Part shown: positions 2,756 to 17,114 of the stretch, one piece after another
Numbering within the stretch: the stretch's first letter is position 1
Layout of the letters: every line of letters begins with the position of its first letter
IMG/VR virus record: IMGVR_UViG_3300035126_000982
Direction: 5' to 3' (one strand)
Source of the DNA: an uncultured virus (IMG/VR IMGVR_UViG_3300035126_000982)
Taxonomy: Duplodnaviria; Heunggongvirae; Uroviricota; Caudoviricetes
Length of the DNA stretch: 20,000 nt
The notes under the pieces: generated by a model
Seen by the model: only the letters and a program-made list of their open reading frames with translations
Databases searched by the model: none
What the model was told of the DNA's origin: nothing
Translations under genes and position numbers: made by a program

Positions 2756-4216
2756 ATGAAACTTTATCAACAACTAATGCTTGCCCCAGTAGCCGCTGGT
2801 GTTATGATTTCTCCGGCTACCGCTCAAACAGTTAAACTGGATGTTGTAGATTACTACGCATCTCAGGAGCAAGTAACCAGCATTACACAATTCTCTGATG
2901 TTCGCCCTACTGATTGGGCCTATCAGGCACTCACCAATCTTGTAGAGCGTTATGGTTGTGTTGCTGGTTATCCAGACCTAACCTATCGCGGTGGTCAATC
3001 AATGACCCGTTATGAGGCAGCCGCCCTTCTGAATTCCTGTCTAGATCGTGTAACAGAAGTAACCGATGAAATTCGGAAACTTCAAGAAGAATTTAAGGCT
3101 GAACTAATCGTTCTCCGCGCCCGCGTAGAGGGCCTAGAAGCCCGTGCCGCTGTTCTTGAGGCAACTCAATTCTCTACTACCACCAAACTTAATGGTGAAG
3201 TAAGTTTTGTTCTTGCTGGTGTTCCTGATTATCAGGGTCGCGGTGTCAAGGCAGATGAAACCTCATTTAATTATGATATGCGCCTGAATTTCGATACCTC
3301 ATTTACCGGTAAAGATCTTCTTCGCACTCGTCTACGGGCCGGGAATTTTAGTGATCTTCCTTTTGGCTCTAGTTCTTCACTGTTCAAACTTGACAAGGCC
3401 GAAACCACTGATAATTCGGTAGAACTTGATCGACTGTATTACCAGTTCCCGGTAGGTAGTGACGTAACTGTTACTGTTGGTCCTATGGTACGGAATACTG
3501 AAATGGCCTGGGTTCCCACTGCATATCGTTCTGGGATTCTTGATTTCTTCACGACTGCTGGTGCTCCGGGTGTTTATAACAAGGCAACCGGTTCTGGTAT
3601 TGGTGTTCAGTATCAGGCAAATGGTCTCGTTGCCGGTGTAAATTATGTTGCCCAAAACGGCGACAGCACCGAATCGGGCGTATTTGATGCTGATGGTGCC
3701 CTGAACGTAATGGCCCAGCTCGGCTACAAGGCCTCTAATTGGGGTGTTGGCGTCGGTTATCGTTATGGCTCCGAGGGCACTCGTCCACGCACCTACAACG
3801 GCTTCCGTGGGGCCAATGGAGCACTTCTGGACAACCAGGACTCGAATAGTGTTGCGGTGAATGCTTACTGGCAGCCCGTTGAATCTCGCGTTGTTCCATC
3901 GATCAGTGCTGGTTATGGTTATAATGCCGTAAGTGGCCAACCTGGGGACACTGATGCAACCGATTCCCAATCCTGGTTTGTCGGTATGCAATGGAATGAT
4001 GCTTTTGTTTCTGGAAATTCTGCTGGTGTTGCGGTTGGTCAACCTGCAAATGCAGAAGATCTTGATGAGGCCCTGATGCTTGAAGTTTTCTATAAGGTTC
4101 AAGTAACTGATAATATCAGTGTTACTCCTTCTGTATTTTATGTGAGTAATGATGCTGGCCAACGAGGTAATGCTTCTGAGGTCGGTGGCGTAATTCAGAC
4201 GACCTTTAGGTTCTGA
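2756..4216 (+). CDS. Cyanobacterial Som/OprB-type outer-membrane porin with N-terminal SLH domain
   Basis: Signal peptide; FSDVRPTDWAYQAL..LVERYGCVAGYP; TRYEAAALLN; coiled coil; QFSTTTKL; FDTSFTGKDLLRTRL; C-terminal Phe. Confidence 0.95.
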   Translation: MKLYQQLMLAPVAAGVMISPATAQTVKLDVVDYYASQEQVTSITQFSDVRPTDWAYQALTNLVERYGCVAGYPDLTYRGGQSMTRYEAAALLNSCLDRVTEVTDEIRKLQEEFKAELIVLRARVEGLEARAAVLEATQFSTTTKLNGEVSFVLAGVPDYQGRGVKADETSFNYDMRLNFDTSFTGKDLLRTRLRAGNFSDLPFGSSSSLFKLDKAETTDNSVELDRLYYQFPVGSDVTVTVGPMVRNTEMAWVPTAYRSGILDFFTTAGAPGVYNKATGSGIGVQYQANGLVAGVNYVAQNGDSTESGVFDADGALNVMAQLGYKASNWGVGVGYRYGSEGTRPRTYNGFRGANGALLDNQDSNSVAVNAYWQPVESRVVPSISAGYGYNAVSGQPGDTDATDSQSWFVGMQWNDAFVSGNSAGVAVGQPANAEDLDEALMLEVFYKVQVTDNISVTPSVFYVSNDAGQRGNASEVGGVIQTTFRF

Positions 4217-9185: not shown

Positions 9186-9512
9186 ATGGGAAAGCACTAC
9201 ATCTTAAACCTTTATGGTTGCGAATTTAATGTTCTAGACGATCTAGAATTTCTTGTTCAACTTTTAGTAGACTCGGCTCTTCTTTGTGGGGCCACTATTT
9301 TAGAAAGATGCTCTTATAAATTCCAACCACAAGGAGTCACGGCCATTCTTCTTCTTGCCGAATCTCATATTTCAATTCATACTGTTCCAGAAAAAGGAGA
9401 GGCCTATGTTGATTTTTATACGTGTAGTGTAGTAGACCCAATTGTTGGCTGTCAAAATGTAATTGAAAAACTGGTCCCTTCTTCACATAAACTTGAACTA
9501 ATTGAAAGATGA
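9186..9512 (+). CDS. speD: S-adenosylmethionine decarboxylase proenzyme-like (pyruvoyl-dependent)
   Basis: MGKH, FQPQGVT, LAESHISIHT (E|S autocleavage), D-x-YTC. Confidence 0.9.
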   Translation: MGKHYILNLYGCEFNVLDDLEFLVQLLVDSALLCGATILERCSYKFQPQGVTAILLLAESHISIHTVPEKGEAYVDFYTCSVVDPIVGCQNVIEKLVPSSHKLELIER

Positions 9513-9736: not shown

Positions 9737-9890
9737 TCTAAATGATTTTGAAAAGGGCCTAGGAAACTTTTCCGACCGCGTAGAGATTATTGTTGGCCTA
9801 GAAATTGGTGATAAGATTTCTTCCGATGAGGCTTATAAAATGATTAAAGAAGAGTTTAAAAAACTTGAAAAACTACGGAAGGAAAATTGA
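9729..9890 (+). CDS. Small hypothetical protein, about 53 aa (MYDLNDFEKGLGNFSDRVEII...); not in ORF track
   Basis: GGAGG SD; fills the gap before thyX. Confidence 0.65.
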   Translation: MYDLNDFEKGLGNFSDRVEIIVGLEIGDKISSDEAYKMIKEEFKKLEKLRKEN

Positions 9891-9892
9891 TT

Positions 9893-11599
9893 ATGAGACC
9901 AGTTAAAGCAGCCGATCTTCTTGAATTAGATAAAAGTTTACAGACAGTGGTTCTTCAGTGTTATCCTATTCCTGAGCAGGTTATATACCAGGCGGCAAAG
10001 TGTGATTATTCTGAAACACCTATTCATGAACAAGTAATTCCTTCTCCGGCTAAATGTGGTGAGTGGATTGTAGAAACTCTTTTGGCTAATGATAAGGGTC
10101 ATTATGGAAGCGTAGAGCATCCAGCAATCACACTTTCTGTTTCTGGTTATGTTCATAGCGTAATGGTGCAGGCCAGAACTCATCGAGTCGGAGTTACTTT
10201 TGACTGCTTAGCAGGAGAAAGTTTAATTACCGTGAATAAAAGAAAAAAAGTAAAGACTACAACTATTTCTCAGTTGTATGAAATGTATACTAAAGGAGAA
10301 GAACTTCCTTTAGTCCGAAGTCTTAATGAAGATAGGGGTTATTTTGAATATTCAAAGATTGGAAAAGTATTTAAAAACACGGAAAAAGATCTATATCTAG
10401 TTACCCTAGATGATGGAAAGCAACTAAAGTGCTCAATGGACCACCGAATTTTCACTGAAAATGGATGGCAGCGCCTTAAAGAACTTAGTGTAGGCGATAA
10501 GGTATCCTGTAATGGCGTATCTTTGGCCTTAATTGGTGAAGCCAGGGAAAAGTATACTAATCCAGTTTGGTTGGCGTCAGAATTAAAAACTAAGACGCCA
10601 ATGCAAATATCTAAGGAACTAGGAGTCTCTTATGAGGTTATTAAAAAATATGCTTATAAATTTGGGTTAACCTGGGAAATTAGGAAGGACCATAATACTG
10701 GTAAAAAACTGGATACCTCTCATTTTACCGAAGAGCAAAGAAAATTGCGAAAAGAAAATGCAATTAAAAATATTTCTAAGGCTCATGAAAAAATAGAAGA
10801 ATGTGGTCATCCTGGTAGAAAACATCCGGATAATACAGAAGTCAGAGTTTATAATTGGCAAAAATATAACAAAGAAAATATTCTGGATCATCATGGAAGG
10901 ATCTGCTCTAATTGCGGGGCAACAACTAAACTTCATTGCCATCATAAAACACCTGTTAAAGAAGACATCAATCAAGCGTATAACATTGATAATTATGAGA
11001 TCCTGTGCTCTAGTTGTCACGCTAAAGAACATAAGGCATTAAGGACACACTTTGTTTCAATTTCTTCAATTGAGTTTTTGCGGACTGATATTACTTATGA
11101 TATTGAGGTTGATGGAAAATATCATAATTTTGTTTGCGACGGAGTTGTGGTACACAATTGTCAATCTCAACGCTATACGGGTAAACGAGTATTAAAGGTT
11201 GTCAACGACGAACTTCCAGTTGAAGACGTTTTTTATATTCGTCCTCCAGGGTATTATACAAATCGTCAAGGTAAAAAATATGATTGGACCCTCGCTGACT
11301 ATAATGATGAATTAGATTTCATTTATGAGGGGTGTAAGAGATACGCAGCAAAGTATGAAAAGGGGATGTGTGAGGAACACATCAGAGATTATCTCCCACA
11401 AGCTATTCGTCAAAACTTTGTAGTATCATTTAACCTCAGGTCTGTTCTACATTTTATGGATCTTAGGGCAAAGATGGACGCCCAACTAGAAATTCAGGCT
11501 CTTTGTGCCCAGATGGCGCCTATTCTTGAGAAATGGGCTCCTAATGTCTGGAAGTATTATGAAGAAAAACGTCTACATAAAGGTAAACTAGCCCCATAA
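9893..11599 (+). CDS. thyX: Flavin-dependent thymidylate synthase precursor containing an intein (about 250 aa after splicing)
   Basis: GHYGSVEH, RTHRVGVTFD|CQSQRY signature split by an insertion, RDYLPQ, NLRSVLHFMDLR, AQLEI. Confidence 0.93.
   Translation: MRPVKAADLLELDKSLQTVVLQCYPIPEQVIYQAAKCDYSETPIHEQVIPSPAKCGEWIVETLLANDKGHYGSVEHPAITLSVSGYVHSVMVQARTHRVGVTFDCLAGESLITVNKRKKVKTTTISQLYEMYTKGEELPLVRSLNEDRGYFEYSKIGKVFKNTEKDLYLVTLDDGKQLKCSMDHRIFTENGWQRLKELSVGDKVSCNGVSLALIGEAREKYTNPVWLASELKTKTPMQISKELGVSYEVIKKYAYKFGLTWEIRKDHNTGKKLDTSHFTEEQRKLRKENAIKNISKAHEKIEECGHPGRKHPDNTEVRVYNWQKYNKENILDHHGRICSNCGATTKLHCHHKTPVKEDINQAYNIDNYEILCSSCHAKEHKALRTHFVSISSIEFLRTDITYDIEVDGKYHNFVCDGVVVHNCQSQRYTGKRVLKVVNDELPVEDVFYIRPPGYYTNRQGKKYDWTLADYNDELDFIYEGCKRYAAKYEKGMCEEHIRDYLPQAIRQNFVVSFNLRSVLHFMDLRAKMDAQLEIQALCAQMAPILEKWAPNVWKYYEEKRLHKGKLAP
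10205..11158 (+). mobile_element. Intein (318 aa) with an HNH homing endonuclease
   Basis: Block A CLAGESLI, block B CSMDHRIFT, block F TYDIEV..YHNFV, block G VVHN followed by extein Cys; internal CSNC..HCHH..N..LCSSCHAKEH. Confidence 0.93.
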
Positions 11600-11604
11600 A
11601 CCCT

Positions 11605-11748
11605 ATGAAACTACCTCTTTCACCTATAATGCGTAGAATTCTTGCAGATCCTGTTGCGAGTAAACAACTTCAAAAGGCTCTAGTAGATAGAGACACTCGT
11701 ATTGAGTTGGATGGTAAAATATATAAAATCACATCTGCCCAATTTTAA
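11605..11748 (+). CDS. Small hypothetical protein, 47 aa (MKLPLSPIMRRILADP...); not in ORF track
   Basis: Fills the gap after thyX. Confidence 0.55.
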   Translation: MKLPLSPIMRRILADPVASKQLQKALVDRDTRIELDGKIYKITSAQF

Positions 11749-11757
11749 TTTAAAACC

Positions 11758-11922
11758 ATGAAATCTTATTGCATAAAAGACCATGAGACTGGTCATGTTT
11801 TTAAGATTCTTCTGACCCAAGAAGAATTTTTAGAATTTCTGGCCGATAATCCAGAAATGGATGAATGCGTTGATTGCGTCGAATGCGAAGACGCTAGTAG
11901 TATCACATTGGAGGATTATTGA
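11758..11922 (+). CDS. Small hypothetical protein, 54 aa, with CxxCxxC (MKSYCIKDHETGHVFKILL...); not in ORF track
   Basis: TGATG coupling to the next gene; N-terminus resembles the next ORF (Y...TG...). Confidence 0.6.
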   Translation: MKSYCIKDHETGHVFKILLTQEEFLEFLADNPEMDECVDCVECEDASSITLEDY

Positions 11923-12176
11923 TGCCCTTATATCCAGTAATTAACAAAAACACAGGCGAAACAAAAGAACTCAGCATGACTATTGCGGAGTGGGAAAAGT
12001 GGAAAGAAGAAAACTTTAAGGACGGTTGGGATAGGGACTGGAGTTGCGGATGCGCTTCTGCGGCTGAATCAGGTTTTTGGCAAGATAAACTGTCAAAGTC
12101 TCATCCTAGCTGGAATGAGGTTCTTAAAAAGGCTAAAAAAGCTGGTGGTATGAATTCAAAAATGGACACTTTATGA
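11922..12176 (+). CDS. Small protein upstream of phoH (FmdB-like N-terminus without zinc ligands)
   Basis: MPLYPVINKNTGE..., W.EVLKK; position typical for cyanomyoviruses. Confidence 0.7.
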   Translation: MPLYPVINKNTGETKELSMTIAEWEKWKEENFKDGWDRDWSCGCASAAESGFWQDKLSKSHPSWNEVLKKAKKAGGMNSKMDTL

Positions 12177-12946
12177 CACGATCAAGAGCAACTCGTAAAT
12201 CCAGGCAACAGGCAAACATCCCACTAAACAAGAAAAAACCCCAGTCACCACTAATAACTCTTGATCATCTAGTCGAACTCCAACCATTAACCGAAAATCA
12301 AGAACGACTTTTTGATTTTTATGATGAAGGCAAAAACATCGTGGCCCATGGATACCCCGGAACCGGTAAGAGTATTTCGTTAATTTACAAGGCCCTAGAA
12401 GAAGTCCTGGATCCATCGACTCCTTATAAAAAGGTAATTGTCGTAAGATCCACCGTTGCAACACGCGACATTGGATTTCTCCCTGGATCAATTTCTGAAA
12501 AAATTGCAGAATTTGAAGTACCTTATAAGTACATGATCAAAAATCTTTTCGATTTCAATTCTGACGAAAAGTATGAGATGCTTTATGGGAACCTAAAGGC
12601 CCAGAAGAGTTTTTATTTTATGCCAACGAGTTTTATTCGTGGGATGACAATTGACGAGGCCGTTATAATTGTTGATGAATTTCAGAATTTATCATATCAT
12701 GAATTAGACAGTATCATTACACGAGTGGGTCTGGATAGTAAGATACATTTCAGTGGTGACATTGCCCAATCGGATCTTATAAAAAAAACAGAAAAAGACG
12801 GGGCCGCATTGTTCCTGAAGATTCTTGGTCAAATGGAATCTTTTGAGACGATTAATTTTGGTATTGATGATATTTGTAGGTCCTCTTTAGTTAAAGAGTA
12901 TATTGTCGCAAAATACAACCTTGGATTATTTTCAGAACCCTCTTGA
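12173..12946 (+). CDS. phoH: PhoH-family ATPase
   Basis: Walker A GYPGTGKS, IGFLPG, FIRGMT, IIVDEFQN, SGDIAQSD, DICRS. Confidence 0.95.
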   Translation: MTRSRATRKSRQQANIPLNKKKPQSPLITLDHLVELQPLTENQERLFDFYDEGKNIVAHGYPGTGKSISLIYKALEEVLDPSTPYKKVIVVRSTVATRDIGFLPGSISEKIAEFEVPYKYMIKNLFDFNSDEKYEMLYGNLKAQKSFYFMPTSFIRGMTIDEAVIIVDEFQNLSYHELDSIITRVGLDSKIHFSGDIAQSDLIKKTEKDGAALFLKILGQMESFETINFGIDDICRSSLVKEYIVAKYNLGLFSEPS

Positions 12947-12971
12947 CAAATCCAGGAGACCATGCTACAAT
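12943..12971 (+). promoter_or_regulatory. Sigma70-like early promoter TTGACA-N17-TACAAT with extended TG
   Basis: TTGACA 12943-12948; TGC-TACAAT 12963-12971. Confidence 0.8.
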
Positions 12972-12996
12972 TACACCAAGATCAGAGCCAGATAAA

Positions 12997-13665
12997 ATGT
13001 TTATACACAAGCCGATAGAAGTTCCAAAGTTAGAAAGATTCCATATAGACGGGAAACGTTTTTATAAAAAAGTAGATTCTGATGAATTAAAGAACTACAT
13101 TTCTATTACCACGGTTACTTCTCATTATACTAAAGAAAAGTTTGCTCTATGGAGGCAACGAGTTGGAGAGGAAGAGGCCAATAGGATCACCAAGGCCGCA
13201 ACGACAAGAGGAACCCAGATGCACTCTCTTGTTGAACATTACCTGGCAAACGAGCCCCTACCAAAAGCGGCCCCTCTACCCAGAACCTTATTTGAAATTA
13301 TCAGGCCAGAAGTAGATAAAATTAACAACATTATTGGAGTTGAAATTCCTCTTTATTCTGATTATTTTAATATTGCAGGTACTGCCGACACTATCGGTGA
13401 ATACAACGGCCAAATGAGTATAATTGACTACAAAACTTCTGCAAAAGTCAAACCAAGAGAGTTTGTCGAGAATTATTTTGTACAGGCCGCTGCATATTCC
13501 GCGATGTTATTTCAGATGACGGGCATAAAGGCTAAACAGTTAGTAATCATAATGGCATGTGAAAGTGGTGAAGTCGAAACATATATAGAGACCGACATTA
13601 TGAAATACCTAAAACTCCTACAAAAATACATTAAAAAGTTCAAGGACGATCATGAAAACTTTTAA
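12997..13665 (+). CDS. PD-(D/E)xK Cas4-like exonuclease; start re-called to ATG 12997
   Basis: SITTV, W..RVGEEEAN, RGT.MH, AGTAD, IIDYKTS, QAAAY; the ORF-track TTG start is the -35 box. Confidence 0.9.
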   Translation: MFIHKPIEVPKLERFHIDGKRFYKKVDSDELKNYISITTVTSHYTKEKFALWRQRVGEEEANRITKAATTRGTQMHSLVEHYLANEPLPKAAPLPRTLFEIIRPEVDKINNIIGVEIPLYSDYFNIAGTADTIGEYNGQMSIIDYKTSAKVKPREFVENYFVQAAAYSAMLFQMTGIKAKQLVIIMACESGEVETYIETDIMKYLKLLQKYIKKFKDDHENF

Positions 13666-13927
13666 TTATAAACAAGAACTAAAAAAAGAATTAGAAAATA
13701 AGTTCCACTCGCCAGAAAAGTTTTCACAAGAAATCGAGAACCTAATCATAAAAAACCCAGAATATAACTACATCACCGCAATCATTGAATACTGTGAGTC
13801 CAATGATATTGATGTGGAACTGGTCCCAAAACTAATCACCAAACCACTAAAAGAAAAACTCAATCAGAAACTCTCCAACAATTGGCGTCTGACAAAAATC
13901 GTTATGTTAGGAAAGCTGTTGCACTAA
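13652..13927 (+). pseudogene. gp33: Truncated gp33 paralog: first 70 aa gp33-like, C-terminus replaced by out-of-frame repeat sequence
   Basis: 40/53 aa identical to the downstream copy over FHSPEKF...PLKEKL; lacks the KWNATELNFLKK...LPI tail. Confidence 0.7.
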
Positions 13928-14022
13928 ATCCGAACGCATCGTCAGAAACTCTCCAACAATTGGCAACGGATAAAAGTTATAAGGTTAGGAAAAAAGTTAT
14001 ACTAAATTTAAATAACTCTTAA
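13864..14022 (+). repeat. Two tandem 78-nt units encoding LRV/HEAT-like repeats (SETLQQLASDKNRYVRKAVALNPNAS SETLQQLATDKSYKVRKKVILNLNNS*)
   Basis: Exact 23-bp repeat TCAGAAACTCTCCAACAATTGGC at 13864 and 13942; L..LA.D....VR..VA.NPN pattern; in the -1 frame relative to the truncated gp33; no ATG of its own. Confidence 0.8.
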
Positions 14023-14050
14023 TTAATTGAACGGCTGGTTTTTATGTCGG

Positions 14051-14057
14051 CTAAATA
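14051..14057 (+). promoter_or_regulatory. Putative late promoter CTAAATA upstream of intact gp33
   Basis: Same motif as at 1719, 4699, 6903 and 7746. Confidence 0.5.
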
Positions 14058-14093
14058 GACGATTATGGGTTGGTAAACCTGTCAAAAAAGATC

Positions 14094-14369
14094 ATGAATA
14101 AAGCAAAAGAATACAAAAAACAATTAGAAGAAGAACTCAAAAAGAGATTCCATTCCCCTGAAAAGTTCGCTCAAGAAATTGAACAACTTGTTCTAGAAAA
14201 TGGGAATTATAATTATATCACCGCAATTGTTGAATATTGTGATGATAATGATATTGATCTGGAAATGGTTCCGAAACTTCTAACCAAACCACTGAAAGAA
14301 AAACTAAAGTGGAATGCGACTGAACTTAACTTTCTCAAGAAGACTTCTTTAGGAAGACTTCCGATTTGA
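14094..14369 (+). CDS. gp33: Late-promoter transcription coactivator gp33; start ATG 14094
   Basis: KFAQEIE, YITAIVEYC..NDID, KLLTKPLKEKLKWNATELNFLKK..LPI; synteny exonuclease-gp33-gp59-gp32. Confidence 0.9.
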   Translation: MNKAKEYKKQLEEELKKRFHSPEKFAQEIEQLVLENGNYNYITAIVEYCDDNDIDLEMVPKLLTKPLKEKLKWNATELNFLKKTSLGRLPI

Positions 14370-14373
14370 CCAC

Positions 14374-14402
14374 TTGACAAAATCCCAATGAGCGCCTATA
14401 AT
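14374..14402 (+). promoter_or_regulatory. Consensus sigma70 promoter TTGACA-N17-TATAAT straddling the gp59 start
   Basis: TTGACA 14374-14379; TATAAT 14397-14402. Confidence 0.7.
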
Positions 14403-14969
14403 GTCTACGAGACGTATCTGGCTCTTCGTCAGCATTTTACGAATCCAAATTATGACTATTTCCGGTATTCAGGAAAAGTAAAAACCAATATTGATTCCTT
14501 TAATAAAAGACGAGACAGATACTTTTTTGAAAAGCTCTCAAGAAAGAAAACCGAACCAGAGATTATAAATTACTTTGTTTCAAACTTTATAGAATCCTCT
14601 GATCCGTCTAAAATGTGGGTCGGAGAACTCAAGACTAACGGAGACGAGAATTATTTAAACTGGAAAACCAGAACTCAGTCGCTTTCATATCGATTCAAAC
14701 AAGAACTAAATATACTGACTGAAAAGCATCATCTCTACGAGGCATTGTTTTCAGAGAATGGATCTCATTCACGAATTATTAAACAATATTTGGGGGGGAA
14801 GGTTTCAATCGAAACATTAGTGATTTTAGAAGATCTAACATCTTTTATGAAGAAATTAAATGCTAATGACGTTGTAGTTTCTTTGGTGATTCATAAGGTT
14901 AGAAAATATAGGCCGTTTCTTTCTTATGATAAAGAGATCTTTATTCAAGAAATTCGGTCAAGATTATGA
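14388..14969 (+). CDS. gp59: Helicase loader gp59
   Basis: Y..YLALRQHF...YDYFRY.GK, F.KRRDRYFFEKLS, VSIETLVIL. Confidence 0.92.
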   Translation: MSAYNVYETYLALRQHFTNPNYDYFRYSGKVKTNIDSFNKRRDRYFFEKLSRKKTEPEIINYFVSNFIESSDPSKMWVGELKTNGDENYLNWKTRTQSLSYRFKQELNILTEKHHLYEALFSENGSHSRIIKQYLGGKVSIETLVILEDLTSFMKKLNANDVVVSLVIHKVRKYRPFLSYDKEIFIQEIRSRL

Positions 14970-14996
14970 TTATTTGTACTTTATTGGTTATTAAAA

Positions 14997-15437
14997 ATGG
15001 ATATTAGAACTTATGCGATTAATGAACTCACTAAAATTGGAATGTATGATTCAGGTGATGAGATGAATGATGCAATGTGCGAACACATTCTCAAAATGGT
15101 GGACGTATTTGCCGAAGAAGGAAACTCTGGATTTTCAGCAAATTATGCAATTAATATTCTTCAAAAACTTTTGCGATTTGAGCCACTCTCTCCCCTGACC
15201 GGAGAAGATGATGAGTGGGATGATATTAGTGATCATTTTGAAGGCCGAGAAGTATATCAAAATAAACGATTATCTAGGGTGTTTAAGGATGGTAAGGATG
15301 GACAAGCATACGATAATCAAGGTAAGGTATTTGTAGAGCCTGATGGTTGTTGTTATACTAGTCGTGATAGTCGAGTATATATTGACTTTCCTTACACGCC
15401 AAAAACTAAATATATTCAAGTAGAAAAATCTGAATAA
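14997..15437 (+). CDS. Hypothetical phage protein
   Basis: Clean ORF with GNSGFSA, PLSPLTGEDDEW, YQNKRLSRVFK; function unknown. Confidence 0.75.
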   Translation: MDIRTYAINELTKIGMYDSGDEMNDAMCEHILKMVDVFAEEGNSGFSANYAINILQKLLRFEPLSPLTGEDDEWDDISDHFEGREVYQNKRLSRVFKDGKDGQAYDNQGKVFVEPDGCCYTSRDSRVYIDFPYTPKTKYIQVEKSE

Positions 15438-15441
15438 TATT

Positions 15442-15654
15442 ATGGAAATAGATTACGCAAAAGTATCACAATATCTTAAAGAATATTATGGTTGTGGTAG
15501 AATACTTATTGACTTTTGTGAACTTGAAGGTAAAATGGTAATTCATAAACACCATATTCTTAAAGATGGTAGACTAAGAATGGGATCCCTTACTTCTTAT
15601 GACTATAAAGATTTTGAACGTATTACTAAACGATTAAATAACAAATCTGAATAA
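15442..15654 (+). CDS. Hypothetical protein flanked by 13-bp direct repeats
   Basis: ORF; AAATCTGAATAAT at 15426 and 15643. Confidence 0.6.
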   Translation: MEIDYAKVSQYLKEYYGCGRILIDFCELEGKMVIHKHHILKDGRLRMGSLTSYDYKDFERITKRLNNKSE

Positions 15655-15716
15655 TTATTGTGGTTGGTAAACCACTCAAGAAAGTTTCCGGTGTTCCGTT
15701 ATTTAAGTAAAAAAAC

Positions 15717-16637
15717 ATGGATTTTAAACAACTAAAAAAACAATCTTCTTTAGGTGGTCTGACTGATAAACTTCTTAAGGAAGCAGAGAAAATGGGGAAT
15801 TCTTCTTCTGCTAAAGATGAACGAATTTTTTCTGTAGAAAGAGATAAGAGTGGACTTGGGCTCGCAATCGTGAGATTTCTACCACCTCCAGCAGGAGAAG
15901 ATGCGGCTTTTGTGAAACTTTATAATCATGGGTTTCAGGTGAACGGGAAGTGGCTTATAGAAAATTGCCCCACGAGTTTGGGGTTACAATGTGCGATTTG
16001 TTCCAAAAATTCAGAATTGTGGGGATCAGGCATTGATTCAAACAAAAAAATCGCTAGTCAGCGTAAGCGTAAACTGAGTTTTTATAGTAACATTTACATT
16101 GTCAAAAACCCGGCTGACCCCTCACTAGAAGGAAAAGTAATGCTCTTTAGGTATGGCCAAAAGATTTTTGATAAAATTGTGAGCGCACTTAAGCCCGAAT
16201 TTGAGGGTGACGAGGTTCTAGATCCATTTGATCTTTGGAATGGTGCTGATTTTAAGATAAAGGTCAAAACTGTGAAAGAATCTTCTGGGGCATCATATCC
16301 GAATTATGATGAAAGTTCTTTTATGTCGCCTTCCGCTCTGAGTGATGATGACGAAGAACTAGAAAGAATTTGGAAGCAGTGTTATTCTCTACAGGAACTT
16401 ATTTCTCCTGATAAGTTCAAAAGCGAGGAAGAACTCCAAAAACGTCTAAATTTTGTTCTTGGTACTCCTTCACCTTCTGTTCAAAAACAAGAAGAAGAGG
16501 TTGAAGAACAATTTACACCATCAGATGTAAACATCACAAAAGAACTAGAGACTTCTTATAGGAGTTCTAAAGTTGCCGATGAGGATGAAATGGAAGAAGA
16601 CGATGATCTGAGTCGGTTTCAAGAATTAGTTGGTTGA
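15717..16637 (+). CDS. gp32: Single-stranded DNA-binding protein gp32
   Basis: AIVRFLP, HGFQ..GKW.IENCPT, C.IC, RKRKLS.YSNI, PFDLW.GA.FK, NYD.S.F, acidic C-terminal tail. Confidence 0.97.
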   Translation: MDFKQLKKQSSLGGLTDKLLKEAEKMGNSSSAKDERIFSVERDKSGLGLAIVRFLPPPAGEDAAFVKLYNHGFQVNGKWLIENCPTSLGLQCAICSKNSELWGSGIDSNKKIASQRKRKLSFYSNIYIVKNPADPSLEGKVMLFRYGQKIFDKIVSALKPEFEGDEVLDPFDLWNGADFKIKVKTVKESSGASYPNYDESSFMSPSALSDDDEELERIWKQCYSLQELISPDKFKSEEELQKRLNFVLGTPSPSVQKQEEEVEEQFTPSDVNITKELETSYRSSKVADEDEMEEDDDLSRFQELVG

Positions 16638-16676: not shown

Positions 16677-17114
16677 ATGAATACACCAAGAATTTATACT
16701 TACAAAATTACTTTTTTAGAAGTACCATACTATTACTATGGTGTTCATAAAGAGAAATTTTTTGATGAGTATTATATGGGCTCTCCTGATTCTGATAAAA
16801 CCAAGTGGTGCTGGGATTTTTATACTCCAGAAAAGCAAATATTACAAGTATTCTCTAATGATGAATTTGGGTGGAGCGATGCCCAAAAAGTTGAGTATCG
16901 CATAATTAAATCAGTTTATAATTCGGACAAGTGGTGTCTTAATTTACATTGTGGGGCAACAATGTCTATAGAACAAAGAAGTAAAAATGCCGTTACTACC
17001 AATACTCAAAAATGGCAGTGTACTGTAACAGGGATTATTACAAACCCAGGTAGACTTTCTCAAATTCAAAGATCTAAAGGAATCGACACCTCCAATCGAA
17101 TAAGAATTCAATAG
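16677..17114 (+). CDS. Putative free-standing GIY-YIG-like (Seg-type) homing endonuclease, short form
   Basis: YTY-x10-YYG, YMGS, E..II and CLN resemble GIY-YIG motifs; C-terminal KWQCTVTG module. Confidence 0.65.
   Translation: MNTPRIYTYKITFLEVPYYYYGVHKEKFFDEYYMGSPDSDKTKWCWDFYTPEKQILQVFSNDEFGWSDAQKVEYRIIKSVYNSDKWCLNLHCGATMSIEQRSKNAVTTNTQKWQCTVTGIITNPGRLSQIQRSKGIDTSNRIRIQ

Follow-up and report, generated by a model that had tools for sequence, protein, structure and literature searches.

Does a T4-like cyanophage with two gp33 reading frames side by side have two genes for this late-transcription coactivator, or is one of them a remnant? The question was raised by a locus in a stretch of 20,000 nucleotides (nt) of the uncultured virus IMG/VR IMGVR_UViG_3300035126_000982, which was analysed at its full length and is called the window here. 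The 20-kb window was found to be T4-like cyanophage DNA from lake or freshwater. The closest named phages were the Synechococcus phages B3 and B23 (Kyanoviridae), with ~68% DNA identity over the exonuclease, gp33 and gp59 genes. Two gp33 reading frames stand in tandem at this locus: a truncated one (copy 1), whose start overlaps the end of the exonuclease gene, and an intact one (copy 2). Between them lies a piece of a gene for LRV/HEAT-like repeats. Judged by sequence comparison, the locus is probably (at roughly 80%) a heteroallelic recombination scar between two related T4-like freshwater cyanophages, and not a duplicated or specially evolved pair.

Two gp33 reading frames, one intact and one truncated

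Both open reading frames (ORFs; Table 1) matched the Pfam family Trans_coact (PF16805), which bears out an earlier note on this DNA that had described two tandem gp33 genes. Copy 2 matched with 91.0 bits (cut-off 25; E 4.3e-26) over profile positions 2–72 of 73. Its AlphaFold2 model had a predicted local distance difference test score (pLDDT) of 79.3 and five helices (3–18, 22–35, 41–52, 56–62 and 65–85). When the model was compared with 48,161 chains using VIA-align, the best match was T4 gp33 bound to the beta-flap (3tbi_A), with a Z of 8.2, a root-mean-square deviation of 3.7 and 68 of 71 positions aligned; the next match had a Z of 4.3. The model thus had the five-helix fold of T4 gp33, which in T4 clamps the tip helix of the beta-flap. 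Foldseek found no PDB structure for the model at E ≤ 0.001 (27 rows had E > 3), and phmmer against the PDB sequences gave only two chance-level matches (E 0.3).

The C-terminal segment A-x-ELNFLKKTS..LP was near-invariant across 24 intact homologues and was among the best-conserved parts of the 25-sequence alignment. A homologue of the gp45 clamp is encoded in the closest complete genome. From its position and conservation, the C-terminal tail of copy 2 may have a role in clamp binding. Copy 2 is presumably the functional late-transcription coactivator gp33.

Copy 1 matched the same family with E 3.6e-19, at profile positions 1–60 of 73 only. Its likeness to intact gp33 ended at 13863, codon 70, right after PLKEKL, which is where the break had been placed before. 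Only five residues of the model's last helix are left in copy 1, while a complete domain has all of helix 5 and the C-terminal tail. On this model, copy 1 is predicted to be a fragment of a family member without most of helix 5 and without the whole conserved C-terminal tail, and therefore could not support clamp-dependent activation. By analogy with T4, it would be unable to act as a coactivator and would be a flap binder at most; calling it clamp-blind is reasonable.

The proteins of the two copies shared 50 of 87 residues (E 4e-35), and their DNA was 74.1% identical over 197 nt. For the core, 40 identical residues of 53 had been claimed. The 40 identities were recovered, but 54 positions were counted from (K/R)FHSPEKF to PLKEKL. 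Both ATGs lie inside GATCATGAA, as had been noticed. The overlap of the copy 1 start with the exonuclease stop, likewise described before, follows from the extent of the exonuclease ORF (Table 1) and is also found in intact donor alleles. Because this native coupled start is kept, copy 1 is probably still translated.

Beyond codon 70, copy 1 runs on out of frame into a tail of 21 aa, or of 47 aa in longer variants, with nonsense sequence. This tail was not conserved: the product has 91 aa in the window and 117 aa in the related contig L008, where the stop is lost. The exact 91-aa product was found on 17 contigs, and two 117-aa variants were found on 2 contigs each. Within codons 1–70, copy 1 kept the residues that are invariant across homologues (E56, K60 and others). 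Compared with the closest intact allele (locus L018), it had three nonsynonymous and four synonymous changes, giving a ratio of nonsynonymous to synonymous rates (dN/dS) of 0.18, with counts too small to decide; ten pairs of intact gp33 genes gave 0.03–0.09. One variant (P0003) keeps the ancestral Q11 and K16. The two changes of the scar lineage, Q11K and K16N, are both nonsynonymous and at variable positions. Contigs from RNA libraries came from one metatranscriptome run. The two contigs, of 151 nt each, covered copy 2 and the beginning of gp59, and copy 1 had none; DNA carry-over is possible for this match, and it is uninformative on copy 1 expression.

Resident and donor lineages

The locus was compared with 80 related loci (L-numbers) and with the closest complete virus record (G001; 249.8 kb, with terminal repeats). 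The window was 96.7–99.7% identical to G001 throughout, save for three stretches: 11751–13863 (78%), 13864–14081 (no match) and 14978–15650 (an insertion missing from G001). From 14082 on, the identity was 99.1%. G001 has exactly one Trans_coact gene and no LRV match. A further single-gp33 locus, L006, has the resident-type PhoH and exonuclease genes together with the insert carrying a Tad3-like gene, and over 14082–15784 a single one of 1703 nt set it apart from the window. The order of this resident type (G001/L006) is PhoH, exonuclease, gp33, gp59, (Tad3-like gene) and gp32.

The first deviating stretch resembled another lineage. Over 2115 nt, 11751–13863 was 93.2% identical to L014. The part with copy 1 (13648–13863) was 96.3% identical to L018 and ~93% to L014, and both of these loci have one intact gp33. 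In bins of 200 nt, the exonuclease gene was 92–98% identical to L014 vs 65–78% to G001. A three-way analysis of the window, L006 (resident) and L014 (donor-like) yielded 448 informative sites. They were donor-like at 11900–12199, mixed at 12200–12399 and resident-like at 12400–12899 (20 vs 3). At 12900–13863, 254 sites were donor-like vs 21 resident-like. The imported block therefore starts at the PhoH/exonuclease border (~12900–12940) and would comprise the whole exonuclease gene and copy 1.

Seventy-eight of the 80 related loci had one gp33, and two were found only in L007 and L008. Alleles of the copy 1 type occurred in 11 loci (L009–L019). All nine of these with enough downstream DNA (L009, L012–L019) had LRV matches at 2–5 places between gp59 and gp32. 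The order in the donor lineage (L014, L018 and L019 type) is exonuclease, gp33, gp59, several LRV genes and gp32. Hence, the segments of the window were near-identical to different lineages, each with a single gp33, and were separated by sharp breakpoints.

The junctions and the DNA between the copies

At the right junction, the match to G001 resumes at 14082, 12 nt before the ATG of copy 2. The donor-like leader reads ...GGTTGGTAAACCTGTCAAAAAAG and then CTTCCGG, the end of the resident exonuclease gene reads ...GAGAAATTCAAAAAAG and then ATCATGAAT, and the window reads ...AACCTGTCAAAAAAGATCATGAAT. From these alignments, the 9-nt TCAAAAAAG at 14082–14090 is taken to be the crossover point. At the left junction, the window follows the intact gp33 of L018 through ...GAAAAACTCAA (13863) and then continues with TCAGAAACTCTCC..., the start of an LRV unit. 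Apart from one metagenome contig, a pattern search with this junction found only the two viral contigs already known. All carriers had one junction sequence, which suggests that a single origin was seen.

The frame at −1 relative to copy 1 was open from 13813 to the TAA at 14020–14022, and from 13864 it reads SETLQQLASDKNRYVRKAVALNPNAS / SETLQQLATDKSYKVRKKVILNLNNS, exactly 2 × 26 aa. It matched Pfam LRV (PF01816) with 33.7 bits (cut-off 21.6; E 3.6e-8), and Tandem Repeats Finder reported a period of 78 with 1.8 copies and 78% matches at 13864–14007. The two 26-aa LRV-like repeats read from the sequence beforehand were thus recovered by translation, profile and repeat search. The remnant is not a complete gene: it has no start or N-terminal part of its own, and its sole possible start is an internal TTG. 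Full relatives (four genes, read in L016 and L019) start with MDYETKLELA..., have 92–140 aa and match Pfam LRV with E 6e-7 to 1e-19.

The TAA of the remnant is premature. It replaces GAA (Glu) of the relatives in ...NRTELIERLV...; the relatives end ...VRRAVAEHPNRTELIERLVFMTNYK..., while the window reads ...VRKKVILNLNNS, stop, LIERLVFMSAK, stop. The ancestral C-terminus is still legible past the premature stop, at 14023–14058, with a shortened end. Positions 13920–14090 of the window aligned in L016/L017 with the gp32 leader and, before it, the 3' end of the last of the LRV genes, and the 45 nt at 14046–14090 were 100% identical to L019 4043–4087, just upstream of gp32 there. These alignments therefore identify the fragment as the tail of a donor LRV gene (its last 52 codons) plus the start of the donor gp32 leader. 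The closest LRV gene was 69% identical over 183 nt, and a search of viral contigs with the remnant peptide matched only the two scar-bearing contigs. From its sequence, the LRV piece appears to be decaying, non-coding debris.

The earlier note had offered two readings of the locus. One of them, a recombination scar in which a second allele was acquired and a repeat gene mostly deleted, is borne out by the single-copy orthologues in two lineages, the LRV 3' end and the 9-nt right join.

Two further features of this DNA were seen. In L008, the equivalent of 13909–13942 had 14 differences in 34 nt of the LRV remnant, with identical surrounding DNA. This patch removes the copy 1 stop and alters the NPN motif in the LRV frame. 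It looks like gene conversion from another LRV repeat; no donor for it was found among the related loci examined. The gp32 leader carries a conserved hairpin, GTGGTTGGTAAACCAC in the window (15660–15675; donor version at 14066–14079), followed by TCAAGAAAGTTTCCGG. Compensatory stem variants occur in L022 and L023. The donor version now lies directly upstream of gp33 copy 2. The hairpin may be an element like the gp32 translational operator. An Rfam search of 13000–16000 at E ≤ 1, which included the hairpin and the frameshift region of copy 1, gave 0 matches.

A recombination scar as the best explanation

We propose that the resident exonuclease gene was replaced by a donor block consisting of the donor exonuclease, 70 gp33 codons, the last 52 LRV codons and the start of the gp32 leader. 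At the PhoH/exonuclease border, where the left end of the block lies, the DNA is well conserved, which is consistent with homologous exchange. The right end, 12 nt ahead of the start codon of the resident gp33, would be an illegitimate join at the 9-nt TCAAAAAAG. Inside the block, the join from gp33 codon 70 to the middle of an LRV gene would have removed the 3' end of gp33, gp59 and most of the LRV array.

Two routes could lead there. In the first, an unequal join would have produced a heteroduplication (exonuclease-gp33-gp59-LRVs / gp33-gp59), followed by a deletion that began at codon 71 of the donor gp33 and ended midway in the last LRV gene. In the second, a single break-repair event would have copied donor DNA with two template switches. 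According to the available parts of PMC4621102 and PMC2988020, gp33 is an essential gene of T4. Truncation of the donor copy therefore required that the same genome or cell already contained the resident one. As the outcome, copy 2 would do the gp33 job, copy 1 would be a young pseudogene and the LRV piece would be debris.

Breaks by homing endonucleases are a plausible trigger, as endonuclease genes surround the region. The trigger stays a conjecture because the window has no homing endonuclease gene at the PhoH/exonuclease border.

Several points weigh against a recombination scar as just described. The exact donor is not in hand, and its best matches reach 93–96%. For lack of the exact LRV sequence of the donor, microhomology cannot be demonstrated at the left junction (13863/13864), and none is evident there. 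A pattern search for an intermediate with the right junction and without the left one returned only the same two viral contigs, so that the order and number of events are inferred only. Codons 1–70 of copy 1 are intact with a native start, and the dN/dS of 0.18 is not near 1, which fits a young age and leaves room for purifying selection. At least three variants of the protein are known from the scar, which lies in two different exonuclease contexts upstream. Moreover, 19 lake-water or freshwater DNA runs dated 2016–2024 contain ≥90% of the sampled words from 13300–14700, many of these runs possibly belonging to the source campaign. The scar has thus endured and does no strong harm. Apart from the patch with 14 differences, its non-coding DNA had 0 differences between the window and L008 and was as conserved as the neighbouring genes, with numbers too small to interpret.

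Alternative explanations

The alternative that survives best, although we consider it unlikely, is that copy 1 was kept because it is useful. As a gp33 core without the clamp-binding tail, it would bind the beta-flap of RNA polymerase and act as a brake or competitor, so that late transcription would be delayed or dampened, or co-infecting relatives interfered with. The start of copy 1 has the very overlap with the exonuclease stop that the intact donor alleles show, which makes translation likely. The 70 codons of copy 1 are intact with the invariant residues retained. By structural alignment (model 17–85 to T4 32–99), E56 and K60 fall near E70 and K75 of T4 gp33, a region of flap and DNA contacts according to the part of PMC7892883 available to us. 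T4 gp33 alone represses basal transcription, as stated in the accessible part of PMC2988020. The persistence in three variants (17 + 2 + 2 contigs) and the dN/dS of 0.18 also fit this model. However, most of helix 5 is lost as well, which makes folding and flap binding uncertain. The tail is not conserved (91 vs 117 aa), only one origin was seen, with the same junction sequence in all carriers, and one gp33 suffices in 78 of the 80 related loci. The few substitutions fit recency equally, and both changes of the scar lineage (Q11K, K16N) are nonsynonymous. The matched RNA-library contigs lie on copy 2 and the gp59 start rather than on copy 1, a weak point given two 151-nt records. By analogy, a translated, tail-less flap binder might even be a natural dominant-negative regulator of clamp-dependent late transcription, a notion to which we give slightly less credence than to the brake in general.

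The other reading in the earlier note, a functional clamp-blind gp33 that might be extended by −1 frameshifting into the LRV repeats, was not supported, and we rate the frameshift extension as highly improbable. Programmed frameshifting or transcriptional slippage in the A-rich stretch would fuse the gp33 core to the repeats, with a product spanning ...KTNHQTTKRKTQSETLQQLA.... The −1 frame is indeed open from 13813, and a heptamer of canonical pattern, C_CCA_AAA, lies in the zero frame at 13825–13831, the sole X_XXY_YYZ in copy 1. Among the features described beforehand, only the run of 17 −1 codons without a stop ahead of the junction is of a kind that chance would readily yield, as 595 of 4464 such stretches (13%) in the other plus-strand ORFs of the window were stop-free. 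The heptamer is inherited: intact alleles already have it in L009–L015, L018 and L019, and elsewhere it is lost only by a synonymous T. In-frame heptamers occurred 12 times in 14,958 nt of the other ORFs of the window, a chance expectation of 0.17 per 212 nt. The 100 nt downstream folded no better than shuffled sequences (−10 kcal/mol, z −0.17), and Rfam gave no match. The longest A run in the stretch is 5, and an A run of 5 is too short for transcriptional slippage. Moreover, the LRV frame has a premature stop compared with its relatives, the patch in L008 changes its NPN motif, the tail is variable, and the two-frame arrangement, of single origin and found in 2 of 80 loci, is not conserved.

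If gp33 had been duplicated in tandem in situ and the paralogues had then diverged, the tandem position, the same orientation and the same start context would be accounted for. This explanation is scarcely credible: the copies are 74% identical mutually vs 93–96% and 99–100% to the single-copy genes of two lineages, the flanking exonuclease switches lineage along with copy 1, and foreign LRV and gp32-leader DNA lies between the copies.

Finally, the locus might be an assembly chimera of two co-occurring strains, or contain a sequencing indel. Contigs from three DNA runs of different studies, X9 (2016), X13 (2020) and X17 (2023), crossed both junctions with 0 differences; these Logan contigs covered 13351–14700, 13386–14700 and 13300–14179, respectively. 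The IMG/VR contig L007 (over 13615–15800) and the metagenome contig L088 (over 13310–15889) were 100% identical to the window, and L008, a variant that differs at 24 of 1330 nt (98.2% identity), also carries the junctions. The check for misassembly or an indel that had been suggested beforehand thus left the structure standing. Although both parental types co-occur in similar lake metagenomes, an artefact is the least probable explanation of all, given runs of three different years, three further public contigs with the junctions (one of them a variant), and joins with no shared sequence on the left and 9 nt on the right, which would be too short for a mistaken join by a k-mer assembler.

Neighbouring genes and other features

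The features of the locus and its surroundings are listed in Table 1. The order exonuclease, gp33 and gp59 was also found in phage B3 and in the tabulated related loci.

Table 1. Positions of the gp33 copies, the DNA between them and the adjacent genes in the window
Feature	Position	Strand	Remarks
PhoH	12173–12946	+	
Exonuclease PD-(D/E)XK, donor-type allele	12943–13665	+	Pfam PDDEXK_1 E 1.3e-7; left part of the putative imported block
gp33 copy 1 ORF	13652–13927	+	ATG 13652, TAA 13925–13927, 91 aa
gp33 copy 1, gp33-homologous part (first 70 codons, donor-type)	13652–13863	+	Trans_coact 1–60/73
Out-of-frame tail of copy 1 ORF (NQKLSNNWRLTKIVMLGKLLH, then stop)	13864–13927	+	LRV-derived DNA, wrong frame
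LRV-gene 3' remnant, two 26-aa repeats and TAA	13864–14022	+	Frame −1 relative to copy 1
Decayed LRV gene end and first part of donor gp32 leader	14023–14081	+	Alignment with relatives
Right junction, 9-nt microhomology TCAAAAAAG	14082–14090	+	Common to donor gp32 leader and resident exonuclease 3' end
gp33 copy 2, intact, resident	14094–14369	+	ATG 14094, TGA 14367–14369, 91 aa
gp59 helicase loader, resident type	14388–14969	+	Pfam T4_Gp59_N E 2.2e-13; usual right neighbour of gp33
Tad3-like protein, 146 aa	14997–15437	+	Pfam PF25185 E 3.2e-42
70-aa ORF	15442–15654	+	
gp32	15717–16637	+	

The slot between gp59 and gp32 differed between lineages: the window has the Tad3-like gene there, other lineages have LRV arrays, and in G001 the slot is empty. 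Tad3 (PF25185) is a family of Type I Thoeris inhibitors, and the match in this slot makes the gene a candidate anti-defence gene. It lies on a 674-nt segment (14978–15650) that is missing from G001 and present in L006 and L007. The LRV/HEAT-like arrays in this slot (e.g. L016 3348–4096 and L019 3336–4036) belong to one uncultured freshwater cyanophage lineage. When the phage LRV genes were searched with tblastn against cultured phage records, none was found in cultured cyanophages, and the only match, a distant one, was to a Moorella phage.

Endonuclease genes were found at three kinds of places. An intein (Intein_splicing E 1.5e-14) splits the ThyX (Thy1) gene at 9887–11599 (+; 570 aa) and contains an HNH endonuclease domain (E 1e-6). 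A free-standing homing endonuclease gene lies at 16677–17114 (+), just 3' of gp32 (phrog_314 E 2.5e-10). In six of the 80 related loci, a phrog_655 endonuclease gene (E 2.9e-8; e.g. L008 499–1287) lies exactly between PhoH and the exonuclease gene, the border at which the window has none.

A sigma-70-type promoter match of 12/12 (TTGACA, 17 nt, TATAAT) at 14374–14402 (+) reaches from the end of gp33 copy 2 into the beginning of gp59. A 47-aa ORF at 11605–11748 (+), with no PHROG match, lies in a 140-nt segment (11611–11750) that is flanked by similar gene-start sequences; the segment is present in L021/L022 and missing from G001 and L014. Two host-like auxiliary genes were seen: an OprB-family porin with an SLH domain at 2756–4216 (+; E 2.8e-20 and 3.2e-6), and an S-adenosylmethionine decarboxylase at 9186–9512 (+; E 9.5e-29).

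Comparison with known systems

Copy 2 resembles T4 gp33 (PF16805; PDB 3TBI) in its Pfam match, five-helix model, conserved C-terminal tail and gp59/gp32 neighbourhood, and in the presence of gp45 in the genome type. It differs by an identity of 22% in the structural alignment and by a shorter N-terminal third. In T4, the accessible part of PMC2988020 calls clamp binding by the gp33 C-terminus 'absolutely essential' for activation, and the part of PMC7892883 that was available gives residues 106–112 as the clamp-binding motif. A C-terminally truncated T4 gp33 was studied in vitro (reviewed in PMC2988020), and copy 1 likewise is without the C-terminal clamp-binding region. Unlike that construct, copy 1 is also without most of helix 5, bears a nonsense tail of 21 or 47 aa, has a natural origin by recombination and is known from sequence alone.

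Mosaic junctions and gene remnants of T4-related phages and wild cyanophages, as described in the accessible parts of PMC2993671 and PMC5112629, resemble the scar in the replacement of alleles at gene borders, a join at short microhomology, leftover fragments in a hyperplastic region and homing endonuclease genes nearby. Here, however, both parental types and the recombinant are at hand at 93–99.9% identity, the junctions are legible to the base, and the remnant is an essential core gene adjoining its replacement. The LRV remnant is like known LRV/HEAT-like repeat proteins (PF01816) in that its two 26-aa units match the profile; it differs in comprising only the last 52 codons, startless and with a premature stop. 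Within the portions of the literature available to us on gp33 in cyanophages and on illegitimate recombination and mosaicism in T4-like cyanophages, no description of a duplicated or truncated gp33 was found. Phage mosaicism with illegitimate joins is a known phenomenon, and the gp33 scar itself is, as far as these portions show, an undescribed instance.

Implications

For annotation, caution is advised: the locus should be labelled as one gp33, a gp33 fragment and an LRV pseudogene, not as two gp33 genes or a fusion. The slot between gp59 and gp32 is a variable site for accessory genes. If copy 1 were dominant-negative, the phage would have a built-in brake on its late genes or a factor that interferes with related phages in the same cell, and this would explain the persistence of the scar across variants and backgrounds. 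With its natural tail-less gp33, the locus also offers a means of testing in a cyanophage system whether contact between gp33 and the clamp is indispensable, as the rule derived from T4 has it. As a recombination scar, the locus would be a clean, base-resolved example of allele exchange in wild T4-like cyanophages, with the parents and the recombinant in public data.

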